Assembly: GCA_965238275.1 (NCBI GenBank)
Contig: OZ250186.1
Coordinates: 320,001 to 384,000 of the forward strand
DNA from: Nitrosopumilus sp.
Lineage (GTDB): Archaea > Thermoproteota > Nitrososphaeria > Nitrososphaerales > Nitrosopumilaceae
Direction: 5' to 3'
DNA: 64,000 nucleotides
In this document: in pieces, positions 19,877 to 54,072 of the stretch
Layout of the letters: every line of letters starts with the position of its first letter
Numbering within the stretch: the stretch's first letter is position 1
Translations under genes and position numbers: made by a program
The notes under the pieces: generated by a model
Told to the model about the DNA's origin: nothing
The model's database searches: none
What the model saw: only the letters and a program-made list of their open reading frames with translations

Positions 19877-19974
19877 GAAAGTACGTCCAAGCGTAAATTA
19901 TTGGATTACTAGGAACAACCCATTATTTTGCCCACTAAATCTAAAAACTTTTAAGATATTTTGCAACGACAGAT

Positions 19975-20175
19975 ATGTTGACTATAAACCCGCTCATACT
20001 GGATAAGATTGACAGTCTTGATGTGCCAGACAAGATAAAGATGATCCTCAAAGAGATTCTTGAGATGGAGGATCGTCTAGAGATACACGACGAAAAGAGG
20101 GGTGCTGTGTCATCGATAAGCAAGATTCTTGAGAAATATGCCGACGAGGGGGACGTAAAGGAGTTCTGTTCCTGA
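19975..20175 (+). CDS. pbeB: Small acidic protein, PbeB-like
   Basis: 66 aa between helicase and ATPase, 1 nt before the next start; assignment positional. Confidence 0.55.
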   Translation: MLTINPLILDKIDSLDVPDKIKMILKEILEMEDRLEIHDEKRGAVSSISKILEKYADEGDVKEFCS

Positions 20176-20176
20176 C

Positions 20177-22264: not shown

Positions 22265-22725
22265 GCAACAGGATATCAAGACTGTTGCAGGCAGACTGGC
22301 CGGCACACATGTCGTACGACAAGGATGAACCGGATGTAGAGGGTTTTTATTCTACGATCAGTGGGACGGTTAGGGAAAAGACCTCAATATTCAACAACAA
22401 GAGACAGATAGACATATTCCTTTTGGCAATGGCGATGGGAATTGAGATGGGTGAGAGAAAGAAGCTGAAAAGACCATCGCAGACGCTCCGCCGCGATGCA
22501 TTGACCGAGATAGAGGTGTGGATGATGTGCAGTGTAGCCCTTGCCGAGGAACGCACCTTGGACGTACTGGCCAACCCATCAAGGGTAATCAAGATTTGTG
22601 AAGAATACTCCAACGGGGGCATAAATACACTGATGAGCCTCAACATGCTCAGCGGCAGCAATATATCGGAACCATATGAGGAGTCACTTGAGAATTTTCT
22701 AGACAAGCACATGTCCAAAGACTGA
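22261..22725 (+). CDS. pbeD: PbeD-like / DndE-like small protein
   Basis: DIFLLAMAMG...ICEEYSNGGI pattern; overlaps the ATPase stop. Confidence 0.65.
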   Translation: MSNRISRLLQADWPAHMSYDKDEPDVEGFYSTISGTVREKTSIFNNKRQIDIFLLAMAMGIEMGERKKLKRPSQTLRRDALTEIEVWMMCSVALAEERTLDVLANPSRVIKICEEYSNGGINTLMSLNMLSGSNISEPYEESLENFLDKHMSKD

Positions 22726-22740
22726 TGAGCAAAGAACCAC

Positions 22741-28226: not shown

Positions 28227-29909
28227 GTAACTGTATAGTTTTTTGATCAAATGTTGAACTCCATGCCTACGTGCGTCTATGCAGTTTTTTGACGTGGAGT
28301 CAGGCCCTCGCGTAAGACCGTGCCAAGATCATCTCCCCTTGCCTTGCATGTCTGCTTGATGCTCATCAGCGTGGCAATGGCATCTGCGCCCTTTTTTGAC
28401 CTGCTCCCGTTGCTGTTCTTGCGCAGGATGACGCACGGCCTGATGGCCCGCTCTGCCCGGTTGTTGTGGTATTCGACGCCGTCTGTCTCCAGAAACGCAA
28501 ACAGGTGATCCCCCTCCCGCACCAGCCTCTTGCGCATCCTGTTGCAGTGCTTGCAGTCGCGGTCCTTTTCGAGCCTGCCGATAAGTGACGCGATGCGACG
28601 ATCCAGCCTCTTCTTTGTTGCCAGTGCTTTGGCACCTCCAGAAACGATGCCGTCGATGTGCGAGTCCCACAGTATCGCGCGCAGCGTCCTTGCGTGTCGC
28701 TTGTAGTCATCGCCGGGATTCTTGTATTTCAGGGTGTCCTTGATGTCCCGGGCGTAATGAAGGTGGCACTTTTGGTGCATGCTCCCGATGACGTTCCACG
28801 CGGCCCACGAGTCAGACGTGACGCATCCCGGGTAGTCCTTGCCGAGCATCTTTTTTGGAACCTTCGAGTTCCTGTGGCGGTGCACCTCGTAGATTACGGC
28901 GTACCTGGCTACAGCCACCCACAGCCAATAGTTTGTGCCGTCGACGCGCCAGATTGTCTCGTCCCCGTTTATCGCAGGCGAGTTTCTTACCTCCTCCCTG
29001 ATCTTCTCGTACAGTGGCCCGAGCTCCCGGGCCATCCTGCACACCATGCGGTTTATCGCAGATTCCGTGATTCTTGCCGAGTACATCATCATGACAATAT
29101 TGCATATTCTGAGGTCTGACATGCCGTGCAGCCGGAGGATGACCATCATTATCATAAAGTTGATCCCGTACCTGGAGTTTGGCAGTGCCAGCGGAGTCCT
29201 GCCGGACACGGTCCTCTTGCAGTTCCTGCAACGCCTTCTCTTTACTGTCACCTTGATGTGCTTTAGTTCCGTCTTGGCAGCCTCCCTTACCACCTTTGTG
29301 TACGTGGACACGCATTCTGAGAGGTCGGAGCTGCCGCAGTTGCCGCACGTGTGCGGATCTGCTGTCTCCTCTGCGTCTATTCTTTCAGGACGCGCAAGGC
29401 CCGTGCGTTTGTGGTCACTTGGCTTGCCCTTGCCCTTGCCCTTGCCCTTTGCGCGGCGCCGGGTACTGCCGGTCTTTTTGTCCGGTTTTGCGCCGATGCT
29501 CCTTGCAACGGCAGCCGATATGATGCCCTTTGCCTCCTGCAACTCTGCCGTGAGATCCTGGATCTGTTTGAGGGCGGCAGCGTAAAGATCAGCGAGTTTG
29601 GCCATCTGCCGGTCTTTTTCGGCCATCTGCCGGTCTTTTTCGGCCATCTGCCGGTCTTTTTCGGCCATCTGCCGGTCTTTTTCGGCCATCTGCTCTGCCA
29701 TCACACCCACTTTTTCCTCCAGTTTTGCAATCCTTGACTCGGAATTATCATCAGACATATGCAAACCGTGGGCAACAATGATCTAAAAATTAGGACGGAG
29801 AGAAAAACTCGATCAAGTGATCAAAAATAGTTTTAAAAAATTAGACAGACGCGGATTTTCTGATTGTAGATATGGAGTTCAACATTTGATCAAAAAACTA
29901 CACAGATAC
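28227..29909 (-). mobile_element. IS66-family single-ORF element; transposase 28277-29764
   Basis: TIR gtaactgtatagttttttgatcaaatgttgaactccat, 8-bp TSD agaaaaac; GDET, QKCHLH, NNRAERAIR. Confidence 0.93.
29598..29691 (-). repeat. 21-bp tandem repeat encoding the AEKDRQM heptad
   Basis: ggccatctgccggtctttttc about 4.5 times. Confidence 0.9.
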
Positions 29910-30004
29910 AGAAAAACTTGTATCTCGGGTCACTGACTTTACACCCCTTGCGGGCCACCGCGTCCAGCTCCCGATAACGTTACAGAACTGTTTTAAGATA
30001 AGTT

Positions 30005-33000
30005 GTAACTGTGTAGTTTTTTGATCAAATGGTAAATTCGTAAGTGATTCGCTTTTTGAAGTTCCGCTGGCTTTGCGCGCCTATACTCGCGCAGTCTCCC
30101 CATCCGAGAGCGCGGATCGTGCCGGATAAATGGTGACGCAGGCTCCGTTGTCAGCCGTCGCCGGACGCGGAACGCACCAGGTGGTCGAAGAACTTTTCCC
30201 CCCGGACGCGGTCAGTGGCCAGCAAGGTGAACAGCACGGAATTTGCGTCCATGCCCTTCCGGGACCGGTTGCCCCCGCCGTCATTCCTCACCGAGACAAA
30301 CCTTCGGTTGGCCCTCTCCACCGCGTTGTTGTCCGGACTGATGCCCGGGATCCGCAGGCAGGTTGTCATGTAGTACCCCTCGCGGTAGCGCCGCTTGCGG
30401 TATTTGGCGATGGTGCCGTACTTGTCGTCTTTGTACGGGGCGGCAAACAGCCCCGCTAGTTCCGAGTCTATGCAGTCAGCTGCCACTTCCCTGGAATGCG
30501 GGTCCTTGACGCGCCAGGCGCGGTAGATCTTTTTGTGCACGGCAGACAGCCCGGCTAGGAATTCGGCCACGTCCCCGCCTGGGTTCCACTCCAGATCCTT
30601 CTGCACCAGGCGCTCCTGGTGGACCACGCACATCTGGCGGGCCGACCCGACATGGAGCCACGCCGGGTACGAGTCCTGCGTGAGGGTTCCCCCGTAGCCG
30701 GGCAGCACGCCCTTGATGGTCTTTATCTTGCGGGAGTCCACGATCTCCACCAGGCACGATCTCTTGCCGAGTGCGACCACGCCGTAACCACGCCTGCCAC
30801 CTTCCAGTGGCCAGTGGAACTCGTCGGCCCCCAGGTGCGGCTCCTTTAGAATCTCTTCCCTCACGGCGTCGCGTTCCGGGGCCATCTGTCTGGCCCTGCT
30901 TATCTTGTTCCTGTATGCAGACGAGCAGGACACGGGCGTGCCAAGCGCGTCGCCTGCGAATTCGGCGGATCTTGCGTGGGACAGCCCGGACATGTTCAAA
31001 AAGTTGAGCACGGCGCCGATGTTGGCGCCGTAGCGGGCGTGCGGCGAGGTTTCGGGCGGCTTGGCAGAGACCTGTTTCTTGCAGTCCCTGCACCAGCGCC
31101 TGACTGTCACGTACTTTATGGTCTTTACAATCAGGTCCAGCCTCTTGACGATCCGGTCGTATTTGTCCGTGGGGTTCTCTGAAATGTTCTTCCCGCCGCA
31201 CCCGGGGCACCTGTCAAAGTCTACGATCTCCGTGCAGTCTGCCTTATCGGGCCTCTTGTTGATCGTGGCCTTTTGCCCCTTGGGCCTGCCTGCCTTGCCG
31301 GGATTGGCCTTCTTTTTGGAGGAAGGCATGCTTATCCCGTTTGCCCGGGCGCTGAGCCTGCGGTTTGCGTCAACGTGCCTCTTGTTGTCTCCTTCAAGTG
31401 ACTCCACCCTGGCCCGCAGGTTCTCTGTCTCCTTGCCGTCTGCCGTACCGGCAATCTTGCGCGCCATTTTCAGGATCCCGCCGGCGGCATCCACGACATC
31501 GCGCACCACGCCTGACCAGTACTGGCAGCACCCGCATCCGGACTCCATGCAGGTGCCGCAGTCCGGCGCGGAACGTCCCGGGATTGCCTTAAATCCCTCC
31601 GCTTCCAAGCATGTTTGGTGTGTCGGTTCCTTCATTTGTGATGATCTGAAGGGACTGGCACCCGCTAGTACTTGGATCTCTACAGACAATTATTTTTGAC
31701 AAGGCGTGAAAAATCTTCTGGTTCCGTCCCGACACGGTGACTACCGGCAGAGGAGTCAGGGTACTTCAAAAAGCGAATCACTTACGTAAATTCCATGTCT
31801 ACAAGAAACTATGTATTTTTTTGACATAGAACCAGACCCTCGCGCAGGACCGTGCAAAGATCATCGCCCCTTGCCTTGCATGTCTGTTTGATGCTCATCA
31901 GTATGGCAATAGCGTCTGCGCCATTCTTTGACCTGCTCCCGTTGCTGTTCTTGCGAAGGATGACGTACGGCCTGATGGCCCGCTCTGCCCGGTTGTTGTG
32001 GTATTCTACATCGTCTGTCTCCAGAAACGCAAACAGGTGATCCCTTTCCCGCACCAGCATCTTGCGCATCCTGTTGCAGTGCTTGCAGTCGCGGTCCTTC
32101 TCGAGCCTGCCTATCATGGACGCGATGCGACGGTCCAGCCTCTTCTTTGTGGCAAGCGCGTCTGCTCCTCCCGGAATGGCACCGTCGACGACGTGCGAGT
32201 CCCACAGTATGCTGCGCAGCGTCCTTGCGTGCCGCCGGTAGTCCTGGCCGGGATTTTTGTATTTCAGGGTGTCCTTGACGTCCCGGACGTAATGCAGGTG
32301 GCACTTTTGGTGCATGGCTCCTATGACGTTCCACGCTCCCCACGAGTCAGACGTCACGCATCCCGAATAGTCCTTGCCAAGCATCTTTTTTGGAACCTTC
32401 GAGTTCCTGCGGCGGTGTACCTCGTAGATTACGGCGTACTTTGTTACCACCGCCCACAGCCAGTAGTTGGTGCCGTTGACGCGCCAGACGGACTCGTCCC
32501 CGTTTATCGCAGGCGAGCGCCTTACCTCCTCCTTGATCTTCTCGTACAGCGGCCCAAGCTCCCGTGCCATCCTGCACACCATGCGGTTTATGGCAGATTC
32601 GGTGATCCTTGCAGAGTACGTTATCAGGACAATCTGGCATATCCTGAGGTCTGACATGCCGTGCAGCCTGAGGATGACCATCATTATCATAAAGTTGATC
32701 CCGTACCTGGAGTTTGGCAGTGCCAGCGGGGTCCTGCCAGACACGGTCTTCTTGCAGTTCCTGCAGCGCCTTCTCTTTACTGTCACCCTGATGTGCTCTA
32801 GTTCCGCCTTGGCAGCCTCCCTTACGACCTTTGTGTACGTGGATACGCACTCGGAGAGGTCGGAGCTGCCGCAGTTGTCGCACGTGTGGGGATCTGCCGT
32901 CTCCTCTGCGTCTATTCTTTCAGGACGCCTGAGGCCGGTACGTCTGTGGACGCTTGGCTTGCCCTTGGCCTTTGTGCGGCGTCTGGCACTGCCCGTTTTT

Positions 33001-33359
33001 TTGTCAGGTTTTGCGCCGATGCTCCTTGCAACGGCAGCCGATATGACGCCCTTTGCTTCCTGCAACTCTGTCGTGAGGTCCTGGATCTGTCGGAGGGCGG
33101 CAGTGTAAAGATCAGCGAGATTGGCCAGCTGTCGGTCTTTTTTGGCCAGCTGCCCTGCCATCATCTCCACTTTTTCCTCCAGTTCTGCAATCCTTGACTC
33201 GGAACTATCATCAGACATATGCAAACCGTGGTAACTGATGATCTAAAAATTGGAATGGAGAGAAAAACTCGATCAAGTGATTAAAAATAGTTTCAAAAAA
33301 ACTACACATACGTTTGTAGGCATGGAATTCAACGTTTGATCAAAAAACTACACAGTTAC
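30005..33359 (-). mobile_element. IS66-family element (transposase 31809-33224) hosting a nested IS
   Basis: TIR gtaactgtgtagttttttgatcaaa, 8-bp TSD gataagtt; close paralog of 28277-29764. Confidence 0.92.
30040..31785 (-). mobile_element. Nested IS66-family element (second type); transposase ORF 30151-31689
   Basis: TIR gtaagtgattcgctttttgaagt, 8-bp TSD gtaaattc; ADEFHW, QMCVVH, DNNAVERANR. Confidence 0.92.
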
Positions 33360-34114: not shown

Positions 34115-34199
34115 CTACAGCAACCAAAAAATAAGACTATTATATATCAATGTCTCCTTTCCCAGCATGACATGCCGTTTGTTGAGTTGTTTATGAACT

Positions 34200-34500
34200 G
34201 GCATCCCAATCCAATTGAGACCACCGTCTGGATGCCGATCAGGACGGGCAAGAAAGTCTCGTCCATCTGACGACGTACGGCATCACGCACAGGAAGACCA
34301 GACCTGCCGCACATGTTTGCATTTTTGGAGCATCTTGGGATGGTGCCCACCAACAATGTATCGGAGCGGGCGTTGCGCTATGTCGTTGTATTGCGCAAAA
34401 TAATCGAGCAGATCAAGGAGCCTGATGCCATGAAGTGCCTGATGATGTGAAGGCGCGGAGGTTCCAGGATGATGCCCGGGTAAGGGAGCTGTCCGAACTG
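34200..34500 (+). pseudogene. IS66 transposase C-terminal remnant
   Basis: Hand translation PHMFAFLEHLGMVPTNNVSERALRYVVVLRKI; boundaries approximate. Confidence 0.7.
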
Positions 34501-34606
34501 CCACGAACGCTTTCGAAGTGCCTGTGAATGCTCCGGGATGCGCCCCTGTCTGTCTTGATACCATGGTAGCACCAAGACACGGCAGGAAGAAAAAACAGGA
34601 CAAATC

Positions 34607-34732
34607 CAAGGAGATTCAGTCTATAATGATGACTTTTTGGGTTCCGCCGTGCCTGCAACACCGTCTCGTGCCATTCCAGCGGCAATCCATCATCGGTTTG
34701 GATCGCCTGCCAGACAACAAATCAGACATTTT
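34607..34732. repeat. att-arm repeat copy
   Basis: caaggagattcagtctataatgatgactttt is identical to 51600-51630; continues gggttccgccgtgcctgcaa...tttggatcgcctgccagacaacaaa, similar to 7257-7339. Confidence 0.85.
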
Positions 34733-34822
34733 ACTATCCTGCATTTCCGCCGTGGACTACAGCACGTCCGACACGTGTATCCATACGACAGTATCTTACC
34801 ATCTGTCAATTTGTCATACATT

Positions 34823-35994
34823 AGACATAATCCGTAATTGGGTATAACCACACGATTGGACGCATTGCAGGACAAATCCGGTTGATTGCACGGAATTGCA
34901 TGTCAATTCGAACTTACCCGATGATCAAAACTATACGTCAGCCGTGTTTTATTCTGATTGCCCATGTCAAAGCATGTCATTATACGACAAATTAGCAAAA
35001 AAGCCCAAACTGTTCATCCGGTGCACTGGACTGACAGTCTCCGAATTTAATTTGGTGGCAGGGCGGCTGGCAAAAAAATACCCCAGGGCAGAGCAAAAGC
35101 GACTCTCCAAAAGAAGCAGGATGCGCGGCATTGGTGCCGGACGCAGGTGGAAACTGGATCTGAAAAACAGGTTTCTTCTGGTCCTGTTTTATTACAGGAC
35201 ATACGCCACACAGGATCTTCTTGCCATGGTGTTTCAGGTGGGCCAGGCTAGCGTGTCCCGCAGCATGGGGGCACTGGAGCCGTCGATCCGGCAGTGCGTT
35301 CCGCTTCCGTCAAAGATCTACGCCAGCATCAAGGCCACCAAGACGCTTGACGATCTTGAGGAGATCATTCCGGGCCTGACTGCCCTGATTGATGCCTCCG
35401 AGCAGCAGATACAACGTCCCGGGCGCAAGGACATGGAACGGTCCCACTACTCGGGCAAGGCACACAGGCACACGTCCAAGGTCCAGTACACATCGGCCAC
35501 GGACGGCCTCATCCTTCACAAGACCCGGCATTCCCCGGGCAGGATCCACGACTTTGCAGTATTCAAAAAGAAACACCCGACATTCCCTGACAACCTTCCA
35601 CGCAAGGACGGGAGCAAGGACAAGAAAAGGATCAAGGTCAGAGAGATCCTGGATGGCGGATACCAGGGGATCAACAAGGAGTTTCCTGACCGGGATGCCG
35701 TAGTGCCGTACAAGAAGCAAAAAGGTGCAGAATTGTCCCCCGAGCAGAAGGAATTCAACAAAAAACACTCAAAGGTACGGGTGTATGTGGAGCACGCCAT
35801 CCGCAGGGTCAAACGGTTTCGCATAATGGGCGGTGTCTACCGAAACCGCCTGAAAAAATATGACACCATCAATGACATCGTTTGCGGATTTGCCAACCTC
35901 AGGGTTCTCCTAGTCCGGGAAGCAATCGGGTAGGAGTCAAAAAACCTACACAATATAGGAAAATATGCATAATTTCTAATTACGGATTATGTCT
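34823..35994 (+). mobile_element. IS5/ISL2-like (DDE_Tnp_4) element, second type; transposase ~34973-35933
   Basis: 17-bp TIR agacataatccgtaatt, 3-bp TSD ATT; IDASE, YSGKAH, DGGYQG, RVYVEH. Confidence 0.92.
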
Positions 35995-36028
35995 ATTATA
36001 AAACTTGGAAAAACAGTGTCTCACAGAA

Positions 36029-36928
36029 ATGACGAAACATCGCGTAGCATGGACGGATGTGGACGTGACCTTCCTCACGGGAAACCATTCCAAAATGACC
36101 GATGCCGAACTGTCCCGGGCACTCAACAGGTCGATCCGCTCGGTATCCCACAAGCGACTGAGGCTCGGACTTGGCAGTGCCAAGCGTGCCGCCTCACCGA
36201 ATGCTTGGTCGGAGAAAGAAGATCAATTCCTCCTGCAAAACCGGCACATGGGGCCGGAGGACGTTGCAAAGACGATCGGAAGAACCAAAGCCGCCGTGGC
36301 GCACAGGAGGAAATCGCTTGGAATGTCAGTCCCAAAGTCGGAGACGGCTTGGAAGGACGATGAGATGCGGTTTTTGAAGGAAAACCCCGAAATACCGACC
36401 GCGACGCTGTCTGAACGACTCGGCAGGACACAAGTAGCGGTGCGGCAGATGAGGCGCAAATGCGGGCTGTGCCGGGAAAAACACCATCCTTGGAGCCAGG
36501 GAGAAGAAGATAATCTGAGAAAGAACATGTCGCTGCAACTAGGCGAACTTTGCAAGCTGTTTCCAAACCGAACACATGCTTCTGTAAACGCCAAGGCCAG
36601 AAAGATGGGCAGGTCGCGTTACAATCGCGTGGGTTACACGGTTACGCCGAACGGGTACATAGAAATCACGGTGAATGGCAGGCGCGTGCTTGAACACGTA
36701 TACGTGATGGAGCAGTACAAGCGCCGCATGCTGAAAAAAGGAGAGATTGTCCACCACATAGACTGCGACAGGAAAAACAACAACCTGAATAACCTCGATC
36801 TGCTACAATCCGACAGCCAGCACCAGGCCACCCACAACTCGTTCAGGAAGCTGCTTAAGCCACTGCTGGATTCCGGCCACGTCGTGTATGATTTTGAGAG
36901 ACACAGGTACGGGGTCGAAAGACTATGA
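36029..36928 (+). CDS. HNH endonuclease with 4 tandem Myb/SANT-like HTH repeats
   Basis: Repeats begin WTDVD, WSEKE, WKDDE, WSQGE; C-terminal EHVYVME...VHHIDCDRKNNNLNNL. Confidence 0.85.
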   Translation: MTKHRVAWTDVDVTFLTGNHSKMTDAELSRALNRSIRSVSHKRLRLGLGSAKRAASPNAWSEKEDQFLLQNRHMGPEDVAKTIGRTKAAVAHRRKSLGMSVPKSETAWKDDEMRFLKENPEIPTATLSERLGRTQVAVRQMRRKCGLCREKHHPWSQGEEDNLRKNMSLQLGELCKLFPNRTHASVNAKARKMGRSRYNRVGYTVTPNGYIEITVNGRRVLEHVYVMEQYKRRMLKKGEIVHHIDCDRKNNNLNNLDLLQSDSQHQATHNSFRKLLKPLLDSGHVVYDFERHRYGVERL

Positions 36929-38229
36929 GCGTAGGCAGGCAGTGGAGCGTGAAGGATCTCGGTTTTCTAAGAATGCACTCAGGCATGCCGCGCAAAGAGC
37001 TTGCCAGCAAACTCAGCCGTACTGAACAGGCCGTAAAGCAGAAACTGCATGAACTCGGACTTTCCGTTTCACATGCATGGAGTCAGGATGAAATAAGATT
37101 CCTTGAAGCGCATCCACGCATGACCGCCGGTGAAATATCAAGGCACATCGACAGATCCGTCCACTCCATATACAGAATGCGCAACGCCCACAACCTGCCG
37201 TCGTCGTACAGCTGGACTAGCGAGGAAGACGACTTTCTCAGGAATAACCTAGGTATGACGGCGGCCGATCTGGGAGAAAAACTAGGCCGGTCGAAAGACC
37301 AAGTGCACAAGAGAAAAAAGAAACTCGGCCTGCCGCCATCTGACATGGCAAAACACTGGACAGCAGAACAGATCAGGTACCTGCGGGAGCATCCGGACAT
37401 GCAGGTAGCCGAGATTGTGAAACAAATCCAAAAGACGGAACACGCGATAAATCACAAACGGAGGGAACTGGGACTGTCACGCAAGACGGTTCACAAAAGA
37501 TGGATCATGGAAGATGACAGATTCCTACGCGAGCACGACGGCGAAGCAGCCAAAGCACTGGCGGAAACAATGGACAGGACGCTGTTCTCCGTGCAGGTGA
37601 GGAGGCAACATCTCGGCCTGACCGTTCCGAAGTCGGAACTGACGTGGAAGGATCATGAGAAGGATACGCTTAGGAAGAACCCGAACGAGCCAGCTACATC
37701 TCTCGCGCAAAGAATCGATCGCAGTCCGGCGGCGGTGCGCAGGGCCCGAAGGCTTGAGGGACTACCGCCGCTCTTGATCCGCAACGAATGGACGGACGAG
37801 GAGATTTTGCTGTTGCTGGACAACCTAGGGATGAAGCGAGCTTACATATACGGAATTCTCCCACACCGCACGAAGGCTTCCGTAGATGGCATGTTGAAGG
37901 AACTCGGCAGGGAACGACAGAACAACAAGGGGTTCACGTACATGACAGGCTACAAGGCGGTATACGTGGACGGAGTACCAGTACCAGAACACCGTATCGT
38001 CATGGAAAAACAGATCGGCCGACACCTGAAACCAGGCGAAAAGGTACACCACATAAACGGCATCAGGAATGACAACAGGCACGAGAATCTGGACTTGTTC
38101 AAGAACCAGTCGGAGCACATGCGGGCAGAGGCGTCTATAAACAAATGCATCCCAAAACTGCTTCAATCCGGAGTCATCATGTACTCCCGCAAGACACACG
38201 AGTACCTCTTAGCAGACGGAACGGCATGA
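36925..38229 (+). CDS. HNH endonuclease with 7 tandem Myb/SANT-like HTH repeats
   Basis: Repeats begin WSVKD, WSQDE, WTSEE, WTAEQ, WIMED, WKDHE, WTDEE; C-terminal EHRIVME...VHHINGIRNDNRHENL; ATGA overlap with upstream paralog. Confidence 0.85.
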   Translation: MSVGRQWSVKDLGFLRMHSGMPRKELASKLSRTEQAVKQKLHELGLSVSHAWSQDEIRFLEAHPRMTAGEISRHIDRSVHSIYRMRNAHNLPSSYSWTSEEDDFLRNNLGMTAADLGEKLGRSKDQVHKRKKKLGLPPSDMAKHWTAEQIRYLREHPDMQVAEIVKQIQKTEHAINHKRRELGLSRKTVHKRWIMEDDRFLREHDGEAAKALAETMDRTLFSVQVRRQHLGLTVPKSELTWKDHEKDTLRKNPNEPATSLAQRIDRSPAAVRRARRLEGLPPLLIRNEWTDEEILLLLDNLGMKRAYIYGILPHRTKASVDGMLKELGRERQNNKGFTYMTGYKAVYVDGVPVPEHRIVMEKQIGRHLKPGEKVHHINGIRNDNRHENLDLFKNQSEHMRAEASINKCIPKLLQSGVIMYSRKTHEYLLADGTA

Positions 38230-38669: not shown

Positions 38670-38777
38670 GCGTTCGATTAGCCATTCAATAATAAAAATT
38701 TACATAACACTGCCTAAAACTGCATGTGTTTTAGAGAGACTTGGAGTACCATTTGACCCGTTCATAGTGAAAAATTG

Positions 38778-40547
38778 GTAATTGTTTCGCTTTTTGAAGT
38801 ACCCCGGATGGCCTAGCGGGCATCCATGGCGCCGGGAATAAATCTAATGATTTCGTGCTCGGGACGACAAAGCTAGACTGTCGTGATCTAAATGTGAGTG
38901 GGTGCTAGTTCCTTCGAGATAGCAAATGAAGAAACCAGCACACCAGACATGCTTGGAGGTGGAGGAATTTAAGGCAATACACGAGCCCTCCTTACACTTA
39001 CCACAAATCCTTCCTGATGCCGGGGCGTGCATGAAACCAGAATGCAGGTGTTGTCGGTTCTGGACAAGGGTGCTTGGCGATACGATCGGCTTGACAGGCA
39101 AGATCTTGGAGGCTGCTGCCGCCGAAGTTGCAGGCAGGCCAGGCGCCAACTGCAAGGAGATCGAGGACCTGCAGGCACTCGTCTCATCCCTCACAGAGGA
39201 CAACAAGAGGTACGCCAAGGCCAACAGGGAGCTTAACGCCAAGGCCAACAGGATCAACATCCCCACCGTGACCAAGAAAAAGGCAGGCCCAAGGAAGGCC
39301 GGCAGGCCCAAGGGGCAAAAACCCACCATCAACTGCAGGCCAAAACGCGTCGACCGCGTCGAGGAGATCGACTGCAAGGAATGTCCCGACTGTGGCAACG
39401 ACAATCTTTCGGACGTGACTGACAGGTACGATCGCATCGTGACTGTCATGCGCGTCATACTGGAAAACGTCAGGTACGTCATCAAGCGGCGCTGGTGCCG
39501 CGGGTGCAAAAAACAGGTCTCTGGAAGGGTTCCCGGCGCGGCAAAACACGCGCGCCGTTCATCAAACTTTGATGCGGCCATGACGTCCCTGAACATGAAC
39601 GGTTTGTCGCATGCCAGGGCCGCAGAATTTGGCAGTGACGCGTGGGGGCACAAAATCTCGCGCCCGTCTGCATACCGCGGCAAGATCAGGCAGGCAGAGC
39701 GCATGGCACCGGAGCGTGATTCTGTAAGAAAGCGCGTGTTAGAGGCGCCACACCTGAACGCAGACGAATTCCACTGGCCGTTGGGCGGCAAACGCGGCTA
39801 CGGGATAGTGGCCCTGGCAAAAGACGCCTGCCTCGTGGAGGTGACCGGCTCGCGGGGCATCAAGACGCTTTGCCACACACTCCCGGACTACAAGGGAACC
39901 ATAACGCAGGACTCGTATGCAGGATGGCTCCACGTGGGATCGTGCCGCCAGATGTGCGTGTGGCACCAGGAACGCCTGGTGCAAAAGGACGTCCTGACCA
40001 ACCCCAAAGGTGACGTTCCAAAGTTTCTGGACAGGCTGTCGGCAATCCACGATAAGATTTATCGCGCATCCAGAATCGAGGACGGGCACACGAGGATCGT
40101 CGCGGCCCACTGCATAGACGCGGAGCTGCGCGGGCTGATGAACGAACCGTTTGCAGACGATGGGCACGGCACCATCGCCAGACACAAGAAGAGGAACCCC
40201 CGGGAGGGATACTTTATGACCACCTGCCTGCACGTGGACGGCATCGAGCCGGACAACAACGCAGTGGAGAGGGTCAACCGGAGGTTCGTGGCCATAAGGA
40301 GCGACGGGGGCGGAAACCGCTCCCAGAAGGGCATGGATGCCAACTCGATCCTGTTCACGCTGCTGGCAACTGACAGGATCAACGCGAACAGTTTCTTTGA
40401 TCATCTGGTCCGCTCGTCCTCTGGAGACAGTTGAGGCATCATCTGACGGCACGTATGGTGCATCACGGGAAAAAAGATTCCACGGCAAGGGAAAGGCTGC
40501 ACCTGCTCCACTGTTAGGCAGGCCACTTCAAAAAGCGAAACTGTTAC
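38778..40547 (+). mobile_element. IS66-family element (second type); transposase 38926-40434
   Basis: Imperfect TIR gtaattgtttcgctttttgaagt, 8-bp TSD aaaaattg; paralog of 30151-31689. Confidence 0.92.
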
Positions 40548-40572
40548 AAAAATTGTTAGTTCAGATACTACC

Positions 40573-42027
40573 TCAGCCCGGAATCAAATAAGAAGGAGCA
40601 TATCCTTTGGTCGAACCAAGATCCTCATAGATCTGCGCGCGCGGCATACGATCCCACAAGTGGCCCAGCAAGAGTATCGCGCCTTGCGGCCCTGCCAGGA
40701 AGAGGTGCATTTGGTCTGGCCTGTATTTCTGAACGAGTCGACGAATCGAGTCGCGTGTTTCATAAGCCCAGCCTCGGGCATCGGCGGCGTCGCCAATCGC
40801 GTGGTTGCTGGCACCATTTGCGGGACGGATGCAAACGTACTCCCCGACATTAATCTGCTTGTCGTGAATATATGCCAACACATCCGTCGACGGATCAACG
40901 GCCAAAGCGATACCCACAGCAAGATCTTTACCAAATCCCAGAGTCGTAGCGTCCTGCTTGATAGCAACATCAGACAACTCTCCTACAGAAGACCAAACCG
41001 TCTGACCCTGAAATGATGAAACCTGAAAGCCTGCGGTCTTGCTCAGCTCTATGCCTACGGCAAACCAAGTGGGCAAGCGCATGTACCCTCTGACTAGAAC
41101 GTGCGCGTGTCCCTGCGATCGTAATTTCTGTGCCGCCCCCCGGAGTTCTGATCGAAACCGGTCATTCCACAGTGCAGGATTTGACAGCAGACGTCTAACT
41201 CTCGGCTCGTTGCCTGGAAACGAGTCGACCCAGTCAAGGACAATAGTAGCGTTTTCCGGCATAGGGTCACGGTCAATTGCCTGTACAAGAATTGAAGCTG
41301 TCGGTGAATCGCCGGATTGCTTTAGCGGCTCAACCGCTAGCCTCAGCTTGGCAACGGTGATCTCCCTCTTACCCTCAGTTACCCAACCGCGTACGATTCC
41401 CATGCCTCGAGACACCGCATCCTCATCGTTGCGAAGGCCGACCGCAGCCATGAGTGGCCGCACCAACAGCGTCAAATCCTCCTCGGTTTTTCCAAGCATG
41501 AACCGGATGTCATGGAAAAACAGCACCGCTTCCTCCTCGTCGACCATGAGGTGCTCGGCAAGCATGCGGCGAACGTTGCCTTCTTTTGATCTGGGTTTTG
41601 CATATTGCAAGCGACGCGCGACGGTGCGATCACGGCCGTCTATCATGCCCAGCAACGGATCCGCAGCTTGTGGAAGGCGGTTGGTCACCAGAGTTATCTT
41701 GGGTTTGTGCCCGCTCTGGTTGCCTATCCATAGCTTGTGGAACCCTTGGATTATGCTTGGTCCGCCAACCCTGGAAGGCTTAGTGAGCCACTCCATTCCA
41801 GCAGCTTGGCTTGCATCTGCTGAAGACTTGAGTTGGTAGCATTCATATCCACCGTCTTCCATGTACACTGTGACATCATCGGCATTTCCCGCTTTAGGAT
41901 CCTCAATTCCAATTTTGGTTATGCCGCTACCTGCATTAATCGCCCTGATTACTTGAACCCAAGAGAACAGATGCTGATAGTCGTCGCCTCTGATTCGGGC
42001 GCCGCTGGCACTTAGTCCTGTGGTCAT
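40573..42027 (-). CDS. CBASS effector: Cap4-like nuclease fused to SAVED
   Basis: N-terminal GDDYQ...DDV...YQLK; C-terminal HLFLAGPQGAILLLGH...QIYE...Y SAVED pattern. Confidence 0.88.
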   Translation of the reverse strand: MTTGLSASGARIRGDDYQHLFSWVQVIRAINAGSGITKIGIEDPKAGNADDVTVYMEDGGYECYQLKSSADASQAAGMEWLTKPSRVGGPSIIQGFHKLWIGNQSGHKPKITLVTNRLPQAADPLLGMIDGRDRTVARRLQYAKPRSKEGNVRRMLAEHLMVDEEEAVLFFHDIRFMLGKTEEDLTLLVRPLMAAVGLRNDEDAVSRGMGIVRGWVTEGKREITVAKLRLAVEPLKQSGDSPTASILVQAIDRDPMPENATIVLDWVDSFPGNEPRVRRLLSNPALWNDRFRSELRGAAQKLRSQGHAHVLVRGYMRLPTWFAVGIELSKTAGFQVSSFQGQTVWSSVGELSDVAIKQDATTLGFGKDLAVGIALAVDPSTDVLAYIHDKQINVGEYVCIRPANGASNHAIGDAADARGWAYETRDSIRRLVQKYRPDQMHLFLAGPQGAILLLGHLWDRMPRAQIYEDLGSTKGYAPSYLIPG

Positions 42028-42962
42028 GGATTCTGTTTACCACCCATGGAGTCAAACGGTCGGGTCGGCTCCGTCCGGTCAAGCACCGATAAAGCAGTCT
42101 CAAAACTGACAGGTTCGTCCGGAAACGCCTCAAGGAGAAGATTGGGTATGAGGCGTTGGGCGATGTCTGAAAAGGAGTAGCCGTAGTCTTGGCATTTCCC
42201 ATCCGGGCCGGTCAGTCTAGCCAATTCACGGTATTGATCGTCGTTAAAGATGTCATCAAAGGCCCTACGGAACAACGCCTCCCTTTGTTCTGCATTTGGT
42301 CGTTTAAACTCATGGTGAACCGCTGCACGGCGCAGGACTGCCGGATCTAGTGACTTGTAGCGATTGGTGCAAAGTATCACCAAAACAGGCAAACGCTCTC
42401 GCGCAAGACGGTCTATGCCCCTAATCAGCGCGTTGACCCCCGCACGGTCCTCGTGGTGCATCTGCTCAGTATCCCGCGACTCTGCAAGTGCATCTGCCTC
42501 GTCGATCACGAAAACGACCGCCGAAGTGGGTTTACCATGTTGCTCAAATCCACGTCGAGCAGATTCTGCCACTTTGTCAAATGCCTGCGATATCAGGTGG
42601 GTCATCTGACCTACGGTTCCTTGCCCACGGGTAATGAGACTCAAACGCAGGAGAGTCACCTTGATGTCTTCCTCTCTGGCTATAGGACTGCCCAAGCTAT
42701 CCGCAAGTGTTGTCTTTCCCGTACCCACGTCTCCGGAAAACACCATCAGCGGTGAGCGTCGATAAAATTGCTCCACGCATGGCAGGACAGATCCGTGTTT
42801 TTCCTTACTCCATTGTTCTAGCAACTCCGGAACCAAGATAAGACGGGCTTCTTTTAGCAGGACGGCTTTTAGGCGATCCAGCCCAACAAGCATTTTGAAT
42901 TGACTATCTGCATCTACGTCTGGCATCTCTCTAACATCGTCGAACAGATCATGTGAGACCAT
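42024..42962 (-). CDS. cap6: TRIP13/Pch2-like AAA+ ATPase (Cap6)
   Basis: GDVGTGKT, IDEADALA, QMHHEDRAGVNALIRGID, LDPAVLRRAA. Confidence 0.92.
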   Translation of the reverse strand: MVSHDLFDDVREMPDVDADSQFKMLVGLDRLKAVLLKEARLILVPELLEQWSKEKHGSVLPCVEQFYRRSPLMVFSGDVGTGKTTLADSLGSPIAREEDIKVTLLRLSLITRGQGTVGQMTHLISQAFDKVAESARRGFEQHGKPTSAVVFVIDEADALAESRDTEQMHHEDRAGVNALIRGIDRLARERLPVLVILCTNRYKSLDPAVLRRAAVHHEFKRPNAEQREALFRRAFDDIFNDDQYRELARLTGPDGKCQDYGYSFSDIAQRLIPNLLLEAFPDEPVSFETALSVLDRTEPTRPFDSMGGKQNP

Positions 42963-42972
42963 ACAAAAACAC

Positions 42973-43476
42973 CTAGTAGGGACGGAACGTCTGTCGTTGG
43001 GTGCTAACGCCTTGTGAAGAGTAACTTCTGTCGGTCGCCCAGTATCCGTTACCGTTTTGTGGTTCTTGTCCGGGAGTGCGTTTGATGGGAATGCGTGCCT
43101 CGATCTGCTGTTTTTTTACATTTGGTAACGAGCCCCAATTCACGCTATGTGTCAGGAACGAAAACCACACTGAGTTAGAAACATCTGCGCGTGCAAAAAC
43201 GCTACCAGATTTTCCATCCTGTAACGAACCGTCCTGCCGAACTTCATAGCGCAGGGCAACAACTATCTGATCGTTTCGCTTGAACCCATATTCTACTCGT
43301 GCCAAGTAACCCCCGGCCAAAAGTTCGGTCAGCTCTTCATAGTAATCCCATATCAAGGATTCATCTGGTTGTCCGTAATAGGCTAGCATACCTCGGAGAT
43401 CTGCCATTACCTTAGAGGCAATATATTTCGCACCGGTTCTGGTAAACGTGGAACTTGTTGTAAATGTGTTAGTCAT
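42973..43476 (-). CDS. cap7: Bacterial-type HORMA domain protein (Cap7)
   Basis: T/S-rich N-terminus, AKYIASKVMADL, GYLARVEYGF; located between CD-NTase and TRIP13. Confidence 0.88.
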   Translation of the reverse strand: MTNTFTTSSTFTRTGAKYIASKVMADLRGMLAYYGQPDESLIWDYYEELTELLAGGYLARVEYGFKRNDQIVVALRYEVRQDGSLQDGKSGSVFARADVSNSVWFSFLTHSVNWGSLPNVKKQQIEARIPIKRTPGQEPQNGNGYWATDRSYSSQGVSTQRQTFRPY

Positions 43477-43811
43477 GTCTCCCTAACCCCTGAAAGATGA
43501 CCCGAGAATGACTTGCCAAGATTCCACCGCCCTTTCCTTGGTGGTAGCATAAAAAGCCTCGCGTATGGCGTCCGCTGCCTCTTCTGCGGCCTCAACAAGC
43601 GCGGCACGATCATTAACTGAATACCGGTTGGTGACATTGTTATCAGCGTTGACTGGATCGAATACTTCGATGGCGGCTCCCGTAAGGCTTGGAAGGTCGC
43701 TAGGTGGGTAGCAGTCGCCGAATGCCACCCGTTCCTCAAGGTCGGTCTTTACTATGTAACTGAAGAATTTTTCAAGAATTCGCGGATAGTCATTCAATTC
43801 CATGCCAGAAT

Positions 43812-45375
43812 AGAAGATATGCGTAATCCACCCATTTTGCCAACCCGGCCATAAAAAACCGGAAAAATACGGCCTAAAACTAGTCGTGTCTGGTATGTGG
43901 CAAGTCCGTTCACCCCAAAATCCAAAATGACGTGCGCAGCCTTGCAGCACTTCATCGTGCCCTGAATTCTACTTGACCGGAGCTTGGGAGCAGGCCCTGT
44001 CCCAGTCTACTGACGTCTTCCACTGCCCCGGTGGTGGCGGGCCCTTTTCCATGCAGTCCCACAAAAGGTTCAGGTTTACCAGCCCGGTGATCACGTTGAA
44101 CTCCCGGTTGAACTGCGCCGCGTTGCCGTCGTACGGGTCGGCAAGACGCGCGTAGCGCTTGAGCCTGCCTATGGCGTGCTCCACCAACACCCGGGTGGAG
44201 TTGATCCTGTGGTTGTGCTTTTTTTGCTCCGGCGTCAGCGGCGTGTCCCTGGTCTTCTTGTACGGGATCTCCGGCGTGGTGCCGGGCAGGTGGTCTGCGA
44301 TTCCCTGGTAGCCGCGGTCGACGAAGGGGTGGCACCTGTCTGATTCTGGCAGATCCGGATCGTGCATCGCCTCCTCCCACTTTCCAAACGGCATGGGGCG
44401 TTCCTTGAGCAGCGTGATGTCGCCGACTGACCCGACGGTGCTTTTTGATATGCCGATCACCACCCCGTCCCGGTTGGCGTACACGTTGGTATTGTTGGTG
44501 AACTTTTTCTTCTTGCCGGAGTATTTCATGCGCCGGACTGACTTTACAGACGGGCGCTGCACGGGGCAGTGCGTGCCGTCTATGAATATCTCGCCCCCGT
44601 CGGACCCGGGCACGATCTTCTTGAAATCCTCCTTGGTCGGGGCAGCAGCTACCTCCTCGGATATGTTGTCTGCCGTCGGAAGTATTCCTGCCAGCATCGC
44701 ATCCATCACCGGAATGTACCGGGACACGGTGGTCTGGTCTATCCCGAAGAATGCGGCAAGCACGCCTTGGGCGGGGTTGTCCTTTTTGCGGATAAGTGCT
44801 AGGAGCAGTGCGTGTCTCAGGTACAGTTTGCACCGGTTTCCGGGATCGGAGACCCGGGATGCGTTATCGCGGAACAGCGGCATCTGGCCCGAATGCGTCA
44901 GAAACACCTTGGCCCGCTCCAGCATGTACCGGAACTGTTCCCCGTCTGCCAGCGTGACATGGCGGAGCTTGTCCCCGTCGCGTATTATGCCGTCTAGCAC
45001 CTCTAGCAGGTGCAACGCTGGCCCCTTGCCGGGGTTCCAGCCATCGTTCCTGCTCTTCCACAGGCCGCGTTCAAGGCCCAACTCCCTGTCTTTCTGTTCC
45101 AGCTTTTTGTCTTTCTGCTTTAGAATATTTTTTAGGGTTTTGTCTTTCTGTTCCAGCTTTTTGTCTTTCTGTTCCAGCTTTTTGTCTTTCTGTTCCAGCT
45201 TTTTGTCTTTCTGTTCCAGCTTTTTGTCTTTCTGCTTTAGAATATTTTTTAGGCTTCTGTTTTCCTGTTCCAATCTGTGCATGATCTGATCAGGCGAGTC
45301 TGGCATTTGATGTGAGACGCGATCGTGCCTGATCTAAATTTATCGATGTGAACAGGGGGATTACGCATATTTTCT
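43812..45375 (-). mobile_element. IS5/ISL2-like element, copy 2; transposase 43969-45306
   Basis: TIR agaagatatgcgtaatcc / ggattacgcatattttct, 3-bp TSD AAT; close paralog of 26836-28035. Confidence 0.93.
45087..45253 (-). repeat. 21-bp tandem repeats encoding QKDKKLE heptads
   Basis: tgtctttctgttccagctttt repeated, plus a duplicated LKNILKQKDKK block. Confidence 0.9.
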
Positions 45376-46315
45376 AATCGGCCAAGTGGGCCACGAGTAG
45401 TTCCAATAAGAAGGACTTGCATTTGAATGCGGCGTTTTCATCTTTTCGTTGCTTGGCCCACCATTTGACCAAGCGCACAACTTGGGCAAAGTGCTGCGGG
45501 TTGGATGTCTTCCGAACACGGATAAACTTAAGGTGAAGCGGGATGCTGGTAAGGAGCCTCTCACCGGTATACTTGTCTATCAGATATCCATAGTCTTTCT
45601 CATCTCCCTCATAGATGACGGGAACAACATCTACATCCAGTCCGCTTCCTCGGAAATGAATTTTCACACAATGGGGGGAACTCGTATCAAAGTCGCTCGG
45701 ATCCTTTTGTGGGTACGCCTCGCGGAGGCGCTCCCCCACCCACGGCACCACGTCTTTTTCACTACCAGGAGTTTGATCCTTCTTTACATATACTGCGACA
45801 TCAAGGTCGTTGATGGTGCGCAGGGCGGTTCCTTTGGCAACGCTTCCGGCATGCAGCATTTTGACCAACCCGAACCCGGGGTTGTCCGCAATGTGCCGTT
45901 CAAGGATATCGCGGAGGCTGTTCACCTGTTCCCTGTATTTGTGCACGGAATCTTGCGGAAGATTAATTCGTTCTTCTGCGAAGGAAAGTATGTCCGCATG
46001 GGTTATGAATGAGTCTGTCATCTACACTCCTCTCATGCATATAGGATCTTAAGAATGATTCGCTCTAGAGTGTTGTGACGCAGTGCTGGACATATTGTTT
46101 CGCTCATTATCCAGCAAAATCAGGCATGAATTCAGGATAAAATGATCGAAACTTTTTGTCTCCTACTACGCATAATTAGCAAATTGCCAGACATGTCTCT
46201 AGGTAATCGGCTTGGAGGCCACCATCCTGCTCTTGGGCGCTGAACATGTAGTACGTCAGGTTCTGCATGAACCTGAAAGGCAGTCTAGAATGGAGCCCCC
46301 AATCGCCGGAACCGG

Positions 46316-52538: not shown

Positions 52539-52581
52539 GCCTACTGATACGCGTGGAACCCAGAAAAGTCATGTAAATATG

Positions 52582-52655
52582 TGGACCGGAAGGGATTTGA
52601 ACCCTTGATCCGATGCATGCCATGCACCTATCCTACCAGACTAGACGACCGGCCC
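52582..52655 (-). tRNA. tRNA-Ala(GGC)
   Basis: Cloverleaf GGGCCGG/CCGGTCC with G3:U70, anticodon stem GGTGC/GCATC around GGC, T-arm AAGGG-TTCAAAT-CCCTT. Confidence 0.95.
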
Positions 52656-52718: not shown

Positions 52719-54072
52719 AACTCTGTTTCCTAATTATCGCCAGTCACACCCAACAGGTTCAGAATTAGGCCAGATCAGTTGAATTTGAACATAATATCAA
52801 ACATCTTCAATAGAAAACCGTATTGATCAGAGAGGTGTGCAGACAGTCAGGTTATCGCCATGACTGAAAACACATCCTCTCCAGACAAAACGGGCACGCA
52901 TGAGGCTAAAAAATCTTTCAAATCCAAAGAACGCCGGTTCCAGTACGATGACCGCAGGTACATAGACCGCGGCCAGTTGTGGACGCTCCAGATAAGCCCG
53001 GAGATCCTGACTCAGGGAGTCGAGAAGCTAAACTGCGGGAAGGTAGGCCGCCCGTACGTATTTTCAAACGCGTGCTTTGCAGCAGCATCCCTGTTCAAAA
53101 ACGCCACCGGCATAAGGTACAGGCAGCTCCAGGGTCTGGCAGAGACGATAGTCGGCAAGGAAAACGCGCCCACGTACTCGGCGTTCCAGAAGAGGATGGC
53201 CAAGCTTGGCTGCACTGTTGCAGACAATGATGATGGTAGCGGCACGGCTTCTGCGTGGTTCTCAGACGGCGGCACCCGGGCCGAGATCAAGCTGTTTGCC
53301 TTCGACTCCACTGGACTCAAGCCCACAAGCCGCGGCGACTGGATGACAGAAAAGTGGGGGACCAGGCGGGGCTTCATAAAGCTGCACGTCGGGGTGGATG
53401 CCAAAACCAAAAAGATCTACGCCGTGGCCATAACCGACGACAAGTGCGGGGACTCTCCGCAGTTTGAGGAACTGGTGGGGCAGGCCCTTGCAAATGCAAA
53501 AAAATCACCAAACTCAGACACTTCTGCAGGCACCAAGGCGGCAGCCGACGGCGCGTACGACGCCCAGAAGATCCGCAGGTACTGCGACGAGCAGGGAATC
53601 GAGCCGCTGATTCCCGTCCGCATCGACTTTGCCGGAAAGGCGAACGGGTGCATGCCCCGCAAGGAGGCAGGATTCAGGCAGCTGGGGGACCTGGACTGCA
53701 TGGACAAGACGGCAGAACGCAAGTTTGCAGGCCTCACGCGCGAACAAAAGAGGGAATTCCAGAAGGCGTGGCGCAGGGAGTCAGGGTACAACGACCGGTG
53801 GTCAGTCGAGATTGTATTTTCCACGTTCAAGCGGGTGTTGGGCGAGTGCATAAGCGCGCGCAAGTGGGAGAACGTCAAGGCCGAGATATACGGAAAGGTG
53901 CAGCTGTACAACCAGATGATCGATACTGCAATCGACAACGGGTACGGCACGCCAAGGATCGTGCAAGCCTACAAGCCCGGCCCAAGGACTGCAAGGGAAG
54001 GGGGCAAGACGACGACGTAGGCAGAATTGCACAGACGAGTATCTGTGTCGAGCGTAATTAGGAAACAGAGTT
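52719..54072 (+). mobile_element. IS5-family (IS903-like) element, copy 2; transposase 52860-54020
   Basis: Same 1354-bp length and TIR as 8026-9379; 8-bp TSD ggttggca; protein differs at 2 positions seen. Confidence 0.93.

Follow-up and report, generated by a model that had tools for sequence, protein, structure and literature searches.

A pair of overlapping repeat-array HNH genes in an archaeal defense island as a candidate two-subunit endonuclease

Two overlapping genes, here called A and B, were identified in a 64,000-nucleotide (nt) stretch of a Nitrosopumilus sp. chromosome (assembly GCA_965238275.1, contig OZ250186.1, positions 320,001 to 384,000; hereafter the window). The window is regarded as archaeal chromosome because an MCM gene and a helicase of the Hel308 type, containing the archaeal domain 4, are present (Pfam). 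Each gene encodes an array of helix-turn-helix (HTH) repeats followed by an HNH nuclease domain (Table 1), and both frames are intact and full length compared with homologs. The length of A, 299 amino acids (aa), was counted from the ATG at 36029. A TTG at 36005 also lies in the open frame; the ATG is favored by the homologous protein P0018 (70% identity to A), whose length is equal and whose alignment with A starts at residue 1. The alignment of A with residues 141-427 of B, at 37% identity, indicates that B consists of an A-like core with three additional N-terminal repeats. A first-pass annotation made from the sequence alone had described two translationally coupled genes with 4 and 7 repeats of 45-52 aa, as well as paralogs whose last repeats align and whose arrays differ in N-terminal number. 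Both descriptions hold, the former from the open reading frames (ORFs), the ATGA overlap and the repeat profile, the latter from this alignment.

Table 1. Coordinates of genes A and B, their domains and the flanking insertion sequences (IS) in the window (AF2, AlphaFold2).
Feature	Positions	Strand	Description	Evidence
Upstream IS	34817-36000	+	DDE_Tnp_4 transposase 34896-35933	Inverted repeat 23 nt, 91% complementary; Pfam
Gene A	36029-36928	+	299 aa; 4 HTH repeats, then C-terminal HNH_3 domain (A-type)	ORF call, Pfam, AF2
Repeat array of A	36050-36181, 36206-36337, 36350-36481, 36491-36622	+	4 units	Motif, alignment, AF2
HNH_3 domain of A	36614-36925	+	aa 196-299	Pfam; I-HmuI match; beta-beta-alpha elements
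ATGA overlap	36925-36928	+	A stop codon / B start codon	Sequence and ORF coordinates
Gene B	36925-38229	+	434 aa; 7 HTH repeats, then C-terminal HNH_3 domain (B-type)	ORF call, Pfam, AF2
Repeat array of B	36943-37074, 37078-37209, 37213-37344, 37357-37488, 37501-37632, 37645-37776, 37789-37920	+	7 units	Alignment, A-only profile
HNH_3 domain of B	37912-38226	+	aa 330-434	Pfam; own profile; HNH tree
Downstream IS66-family element	38775-40550	+	Transposase 38926-40434	Inverted repeat 26 nt, 88% complementary; Pfam DDE_Tnp_IS66

The repeat units begin at residues 8, 60, 108 and 155 of A and at residues 7, 52, 97, 145, 193, 241 and 289 of B, and they follow the consensus W-x3-E-x2-F-L-R ... R-T-x3-V-x3-R-x2-L-G-L. 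The first Trp and one Leu are invariant across the 11 repeats, no other Trp is conserved, and the helix-3 residues vary between repeats of one protein. A profile built from the four repeats of A alone recovered exactly 7 units in B, with 13.9-39.5 bits each and 171.3 bits summed, while 200 shuffles of the array of B peaked at 5.5 bits, none of them with a unit above 5 bits. In the PHROG collection, the array family phrog_323 ("transcriptional regulator, D5-like") matched A at 1.7e-26 and B at 3.7e-58.

Structural models were obtained with AF2 from a 13-row alignment for A (predicted local distance difference test, pLDDT, 84.9; predicted template modeling score, pTM, 0.35) and from an 8-row alignment for B (pLDDT 78.7, pTM 0.27). 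In these models every repeat of A and B consists of three helices, giving 4 and 7 units, and each protein ends in a beta-beta-alpha unit; the low pTM fits a beads-on-a-string arrangement. The check by structure prediction that the repeats fold as HTH modules was thus positive. Among 997 chains aligned with VIA-align, the top two rows were structures of the GcrA DNA-binding domain. The best solved match of a single repeat was 5yiu (Z 8.2, root-mean-square deviation (rmsd) 1.4 Å, 47/49 residues, 26% identity), together with 5yiv_A, a complex with methylated DNA (Z 7.4); the identity of GcrA to the repeat was 26-28%. The c-Myb R2R3 repeats aligned with Z 6.4-6.5. Foldseek found no match in the PDB at E <= 0.001, its top rows being the SNAPc complex chain 7xur_A (E 2.2e-3), Reb1-Ter 5eyb, Mos1, Tc3 and tandem homeodomains. 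The 11-repeat profile searched against PDB sequences listed the CRISPR-repeat-binding protein 2lvs (E 0.007), c-Myb R3 (E 0.008) and the GcrA structure 5yiu (E 0.98).

Myb/SANT domains are defined by three regularly spaced Trp (or aromatic) residues that form the core. This three-Trp core is absent here, where only the first Trp is invariant. The Pfam family Myb_DNA-binding (PF00249) remained below its gathering score of 24.4 bits in both A (14.2) and B (10.6), and single-repeat matching to this family detected 1 of the 11 repeats, at E 0.21. The Pfam GcrA family (PF07750) was not listed for A or B at E <= 1; it does appear in the precomputed Pfam annotation of P0001-P0003, homologs that have repeats only. 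On the predicted models, the repeats are three-helix HTH modules of the Myb/homeodomain-like type; the GcrA domain is their nearest solved relative, and they should not be classed as Pfam Myb/SANT. From the earlier label of Myb/SANT repeats, the three-helix HTH of the Myb/homeodomain-like class can be retained, and the family name cannot, given the subthreshold Pfam Myb scores and the better match to GcrA.

The C-terminal domains exceeded the Pfam HNH_3 (PF13392) gathering score of 24.8, with 30.0 bits in A and 35.7 bits in B, and several PHROG families of HNH endonucleases were matched as well. In the model of A, the nuclease elements are two strands (E240-243, E256-259) and a helix (H262-282). 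The homing endonuclease I-HmuI (1u3e_M) ranked third in VIA-align against A (Z 7.1, 77 residues, rmsd 3.4 Å) and was matched by Foldseek with a probability of 0.99. The first-pass assignment of a phage-type, I-HmuI-type HNH domain closing each protein is therefore supported both by the Pfam scores and by structural similarity. Sequence searches of the PDB returned no match with B at E <= 1, and with the HNH domain of A they returned only a spurious TsaE row (E 0.27).

The catalytic signature of A is H242, H243, N251, N255, H265 and H269. In 13 aligned A-type proteins, the first five positions are invariant and H269 is nearly so. Colicin-type HNH enzymes hold the metal at the start of the helix that follows the two strands, and the model of A places H265 and H269 at this point. 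B carries the signature HHNNHE, in which Glu402 replaces the last His and the remaining HH, N, N and H positions are retained. Across the alignment columns of 57 HNH domains from repeat-bearing homologs, H-H-N-N-H-H was observed in 38 (A included) and H-H-N-N-H-E in 13 (B included). The signature ended in Q in two domains (P0008, and P0011 with H-R-N-N-H-Q, where Arg stands for the second His) and in G in one (the second domain of P0023); the other three showed different variants. Glu is a competent metal ligand, and the Glu of B-type domains could serve as one. The B-type site appears less constrained, because Q, G and R variants occur.

The order of an A-type gene followed by a B-type gene was observed a second time in a chromosome-scale metagenome-assembled genome (MAG) of Cenarchaeum (G454). 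At this locus (L017), an A-type gene (7007-7966), identical to P0014, overlaps by 8 nt with a B-type gene (7959-9272) that contains P0006/P0157. Furthermore, both units can be joined in one chain. Repeats with two HNH domains were present in 4 of the best 150 matches of an exhaustive protein search (P0007, P0016, P0017 and P0023), and the cluster members P0154 and P0156 are also two-HNH fusions, which brings the count to six fused metagenome proteins in four clusters. In 6/6 of them the A-type unit precedes the B-type unit, and the first HNH ends its signature with His, again in 6/6; in the second HNH, the last signature position is Glu in 5/6 and Gly in 1/6. Additionally, P0022, an A-type protein that stands alone, shares 56% identity with the N-terminal 285 aa of the fused P0016.

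A maximum-likelihood tree of 55 HNH domains, calculated after removal of two duplicate rows, separated these units in the same manner. The six second domains of the fused proteins grouped with B, P0005, P0009/P0158 and P0088 in a starred 11-row clade (98/90). The six first domains joined A, P0018 and P0022 in a group of 9 rows (90/92, unstarred), in which the inner node uniting P0022 with the six first domains was starred (97/82). Within the A-type and B-type groups, the fused proteins follow an identical branching order. P0006, P0008 and P0011, B-type genes from the L017 lineage, form a separate starred clade without a resolved position, and P0014 groups with P0012. The conserved order, the recurrent fusion and the parallel branching provide good comparative evidence that the A and B units work together. 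The earlier suggestion that A and B act as a pair thus gains support from the L017 pair, the fusions and the grouping in the tree.

The exhaustive search returned 29,499 proteins at E <= 0.001, with 1,251 at E <= 1e-10 and 23 at E <= 1e-30. Architectures were counted in its best 150 matches with our own profile thresholds. In addition to the four with two HNH domains, 88 contained repeats only, 40 contained repeats and one HNH, 5 contained HNH only, and 13 showed neither at the cut-offs used. The 40 one-HNH proteins carry one (n = 6), two (12), three (10), four (9), five (1) or six (2) repeats. With 7 repeats in B and 8-9 in the fused forms, the repeat number varies among homologs, as the first-pass annotation had proposed to check.

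In a metagenome scan of 80 loci, an HNH ORF was present in 78 and none was seen in L096 and L106. The HNH genes were generic HNH_3; seven HNH ORFs had 1-3 repeats, and three loci had a double-HNH ORF without repeats. In a viral scan with an alignment, also of 80 loci, one locus had two HNH ORFs. Scanning viral contigs with B or P0007 gave no locus, and with P0017 one weak locus; a genome scan with P0006 recovered its own locus, L017, only. By tblastn, B matched 143 records of phage genomes, the best of which cover the last repeats and the HNH domain only. Among viral models, Foldseek gave 30 matches at E <= 0.001, some of which are named homing endonuclease, HNH nuclease or D5 protein, and the protein-atlas look-up of A led to HNH_3 clusters that are mostly viral.

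Closer to the host, B had no match in 60 related genomes. In 400 further genomes sampled from the phylum, the A-family profile found no full-architecture match; repeat-only or HNH-only pieces turned up in 10 of them. The Cenarchaeum MAG that carries the second pair and the window genome (G000) are members of one phylum; the MCM proteins of the two are 76% identical, and the nuclease pairs only 36-41%. The flanks of the two pairs had no protein-level match and shared only two blastn matches of 38-53 nt, both inside the genes. At the level of sequence comparison, this patchy, fast-evolving and non-syntenic pattern is the look of selfish or defense genes.

A large number of HNH_3 proteins that lack these repeats have tandem HNH domains in a single chain, two in P0060, P0061, P0070, P0071, P0082 and others, and three in P0038. 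Loci of this kind include L042 (320-1198), L056 (133-1356) and L057 (1747-2970). The many repeat-less HNH_3 proteins with multiple HNH domains suggest that HNH doubling may be a wider theme in the family.

We propose, as an evenly balanced proposition, that A and B form a site-specific HNH endonuclease that belongs to the homing-endonuclease kind and has two subunits, fused in some cases, with a long site, two arrays and two cutters. In this proposal, the overlapping genes would be translated into two halves of one sequence-specific endonuclease of the I-HmuI/HNH_3 kind. The arrays of 4 (A) and 7 (B) GcrA/Myb-like modules would be laid along the DNA and would jointly read a long target. Each C-terminal HNH would then cut one strand, resulting in a double-strand break, or in a nick if only A is active. 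One strand per HNH is suggested because I-HmuI-type enzymes nick and A-B fusions exist. The cassette itself probably behaves as a free-standing selfish nuclease gene, to judge from its patchy, fast-evolving and non-syntenic occurrence and its position between IS elements in a defense island. If each unit does cut one strand, the pair would show a route from nickase-type HNH enzymes to double-strand breaks, and would offer a family, naturally varied in its number of modules, in which the reading of long sites by multiple HTH units could be studied. The pair also records a phage-type, probably selfish nuclease in an archaeal defense island.

Several observations weigh against this proposal. Neither a target site nor an empty-site allele was found, nor an intron or intein setting, and the flanks of the pair, both IS elements, gave no clue to a target. 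Expression is uncertain, because the right end of the upstream IS lies 28 nt before the ATG of A. Adjacent repeat-HNH gene pairs were seen in 0/80 loci of the metagenome scan, and 0 of the 81 HNH ORFs in the 80 loci of the viral scan carried this repeat. The I-HmuI match (Z 7.1) falls short of the level regarded as clearly specific in VIA-align. Some B-type domains, namely those of P0011, P0008 and P0023, look catalytically degraded, so B may not always cut. The unfused pairs inspected number two, and they amount to less than two independent observations because the host genomes are related. Finally, both known pairs lie in defense islands (Dnd-Pbe and CBASS accompany the window pair, PDC-S46 the L017 pair), which fits a defense role equally well.

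Comparison with described systems places the pair nearest in design to the I-HmuI/HNH_3 group, which likewise joins a nuclease to HTH-type modules and whose HNH_3 catalytic domain is present in both A and B. The DNA-binding domains of I-HmuI are NUMOD/IENR, whereas GcrA/Myb-like modules are found here, up to 7 per chain. The orientation also differs, with an N-terminal array and a C-terminal HNH here, and with the I-HmuI match located at residues 25-105 of its 174-residue chain. Further differences are the two-gene or fused A/B form with two HNH types and the lack of a sequence-level PDB match. Passages of PMC5714182 describe the HNH_3/I-HmuI group (His-Me finger group 2) as homing endonucleases with single or tandem NUMOD or other HTH modules. 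The general design, an HNH_3 homing endonuclease with small DNA-binding modules, is thus already known. What seems to be undescribed is the conserved two-part form, in which a canonical HNH unit is followed by a Glu-variant unit, overlapping or fused, each with its own array. In the open-access literature, no description was found of GcrA/Myb-like arrays fused to HNH_3, nor of such an A/B gene pair. Two candidate precedents for a GcrA-HNH combination were irrelevant: in PMC5487053 the search term had matched a degenerate DNA motif, and PMC7824862 mentions Myb-type regulators and HNH separately.

Among phage proteins, gp103 of mycobacteriophage Thibault was matched by tblastn to residues 260-430 of B, that is, the last repeats and the HNH domain (33% identity, E 1e-12). 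Passages of PMC3706429 treat such mycobacteriophage HNH genes as free-standing homing endonucleases. Unlike the pair described here, they are single genes of about 205 aa with no A/B pairing seen; family members of ~205 aa carry about two repeats in the profile scan, which did not include the phage protein itself. In the Thibault genome (L018, JN201525; 1919-3720), gp103 lies between the short genes gp102 and gp105, both annotated as DNA methylase, and from this arrangement it looks inserted into a methylase gene.

GcrA of Caulobacter crescentus, the source of the DNA-binding domain that best matches a single repeat, consists as a whole of a single DNA-binding domain and a C-terminal sigma-factor-binding domain. 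This architecture was not observed in A or B, where 4 or 7 DNA-binding units are fused to an HNH nuclease and no other domain is present. According to the abstracts of PMC5887438 and PMC4647560, GcrA works with sigma70/RNA polymerase, and the former adds that it binds methylated elements preferentially. Tandem three-helix modules that track along DNA are also known from c-Myb R2R3, Reb1, SNAPc subunit 4 and the archaeal protein 2lvs. None of these is a nuclease, whereas the repeats here end in one, keep a single Trp and score below the Pfam Myb threshold.

An alternative that we consider unlikely, and that nevertheless has to be weighed first, is a defense nuclease, in which the pair would be an innate effector recognizing invading DNA through its HTH arrays, possibly in a modification-dependent manner. 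The company of both inspected pairs (DndB/C/D, PbeA, PbeC and CBASS in the window; PDC-S46, 2.4e-201, in L017) points in this direction, but selfish genes also gather in defense islands, and the phage relatives are annotated or discussed as homing endonucleases. A modification-dependent effector would be consistent with the best structural match of the repeat, the GcrA domain, represented also by the methylated-DNA complex 5yiv, and with the preference of GcrA for methylated elements (PMC5887438); however, neither a methylase nor another self-protection partner is located beside the pair. A search of PADLOC-DB 2.0 with A gave 0 families. With B it gave only mad1 of the MADS defense system, a 60-position, HTH-sized model, at 2.9e-10 and with no single stretch passing, so that the match is at the level of one HTH. 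Moreover, long multi-module arrays would suggest rare long targets, which suit homing better than broad restriction.

It is rather unlikely that the two proteins represent one nuclease and a helper, with only A nicking and B, its HNH weakened or inactive, targeting, clamping or regulating, or that both are DNA-binding regulators with vestigial HNH domains. Such a division of labor would be consistent with the replacement of the last His in all B-type domains (13 E, 2 Q, 1 G) and with the Arg at the second His of P0011. The array also exists as a DNA-binding protein by itself, in the 88 of 150 best matches that lack HNH, and its PHROG family is labeled as a transcriptional regulator. On the other hand, Glu can bind metal in general chemistry, B retains its HH, N, N and H residues, and the conservation of the B-type HNH over the starred 11-row clade, fusions included, argues for selection on the domain.

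The two-subunit endonuclease may be extended to a more specific and quite doubtful form. This would be an obligate dual-nickase in which a canonical-His and a Glu-variant HNH, guided by independently extendable arrays, whose modules would each cover a few base pairs, to a joint target of ~40-60 bp, leave a staggered double-strand break; or the arrays would read a DNA modification pattern instead of the bare sequence, which could be so because the GcrA fold can sense methylated DNA. If the dual-nickase were true and the register of modules on DNA solvable, the pair would constitute a natural, compact, protein-only scaffold for very-long-target nucleases.

The possibility that the cassette is an inactive passenger, acquired horizontally, stranded among IS elements and no longer expressed or functional, appears improbable. 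Its setting would agree with this, with the upstream IS ending just before A, the next IS starting 546 nt past B, abundant IS copies and apparent debris, and a neighboring CBASS cyclase gene split by an IS. The frames, however, are full length relative to homologs, and neither the catalytic signatures nor the ATGA coupling has been lost.

The first-pass annotation had likened the arrays to those of transcription-activator-like effector (TALE) nucleases and zinc-finger nucleases, with a long, evolvable target. In an ungapped comparison, the repeats within the window are 7-42% identical. Counted from the HNH domain, 48/60 repeats across 13 proteins were most similar to the repeat at the same position of another protein (13/13 at -1, 13/13 at -2, 9/13 at -3 and 12/12 at -4). 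When A was compared with its ortholog (70% identity), helix 3 was the best conserved element with 34/41 residues (83%), compared with 26/37 in helix 1, 18/29 in helix 2, 27/44 in the linkers and 69/97 in the HNH region; no sign of diversifying change at the recognition positions was seen between these orthologs. The additional N-terminal units mostly resemble internal units, which suggests that the array of B grew by duplication. Judged by this positional order and the conservation of helix 3, the array is a series of ordered, distinct modules under purifying selection, occasionally extended by N-terminal duplication. Neither the evolvable code nor the positive selection that was to be sought at helix 3 is borne out.

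A programmable nuclease, retargeted by exchanging or adding repeats that each recognize a few bases with a variable helix 3, is consequently very improbable, since the variable repeat number, the differences in helix-3 residues among repeats and the apparent duplication of N-terminal units in B are outweighed by repeats that are far from near-identical cassettes, are matched by position and are most conserved at helix 3 between orthologs. The engineered TALE and zinc-finger nucleases share with A and B an array of modules tethered to a nuclease and the use in pairs. They differ in that the nuclease here is HNH and not FokI, and in that the repeats here are divergent, fixed in order and without hypervariable specificity residues, with recognition helices conserved between orthologs. 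The conservation pattern leaves the hope of a reprogrammable nuclease unsupported.

With regard to the immediate flanks, the terminal inverted repeats of the upstream IS lie at 34817-34839 and 35978-36000. An HNH-based transposon was considered and dropped, as the inverted repeats found belong to the two flanking IS and none bracket the pair itself. The region upstream of this IS (34147-34816) is without a long ORF and by eye resembles IS66-type debris. Within 35978-36029, which comprises the right end of the IS and its flank, the sequence reads TTATAAAA about 30 nt before the ATG of A; this could, only as an idea, be a hybrid archaeal TATA box for a near-leaderless transcript. The first-pass annotation had placed the genes in a defense module, directly after an attachment (att) junction. 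The defense setting is confirmed by the Dnd-Pbe and CBASS neighbors. No att junction was found on reading the stretch upstream of A, and the 1.2 kb immediately upstream of A consist of the IS, with the apparent IS66 debris ahead of it.

A direct repeat of ~42 nt was observed farther away, at 7191-7232 and 52555-52596, which includes the 3' end of a tRNA-Ala (52581-52655, minus strand) and ~27 nt beyond it. The ~45 kb between the two copies has a lower GC content and contains Dnd-Pbe, the HNH pair, CBASS and many IS elements. The att-like repeats that bracket this DNA suggest an integrated island, and the ORFs that were scanned with Pfam and PHROGs included no integrase for it. The phosphorothioation defense cluster of the island (10661-25146) encodes DndB (2e-113), a DndC-like PAPS reductase, a DndD-like SMC ATPase, a class-V aminotransferase of the cysteine desulfurase type, an HNH protein, PbeA (9e-184), PbeC (2e-74), a small dnd_assoc_4-like protein and an 801-aa protein without a family match. 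A type III operon of the cyclic-oligonucleotide-based antiphage signaling system (CBASS) follows on the minus strand (40573-46021), with SAVED (40573-42027), TRIP13-like AAA (42024-42962) and HORMA (42973-43476) genes. Its cyclase is split by a DDE_Tnp_4 IS (43969-45306) into a C-terminal piece (43483-43950, positions 208-317 of CBASS_cyclase_a) and an N-terminal SMODS piece (45374-46021).

Elsewhere in the island, AbiEii and many transposases were identified. At its left end, a RelE-like toxin ORF (7567-7842, minus strand; phrog_1213, 1.1e-10) adjoins a 90-aa ORF (7308-7580) that may be its partner. At L017, the region adjoining the second pair (11672-15680) encodes a HATPase_c-like protein (weak Pfam match) and a 780-aa ATPase, which is the PDC-S46 match in PADLOC, and the pair is surrounded by IS630-, IS66- and IS4-type transposases. 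In the window, four IS66-family transposase genes (495, 512, 471 and 502 aa) occur within 12 kb, in 28277-33224 and 38926-40434, three of them consecutive on the minus strand. Two DDE_Tnp_1 copies of 386 aa are located near the island ends, at 8078-9238 and 52860-54020.

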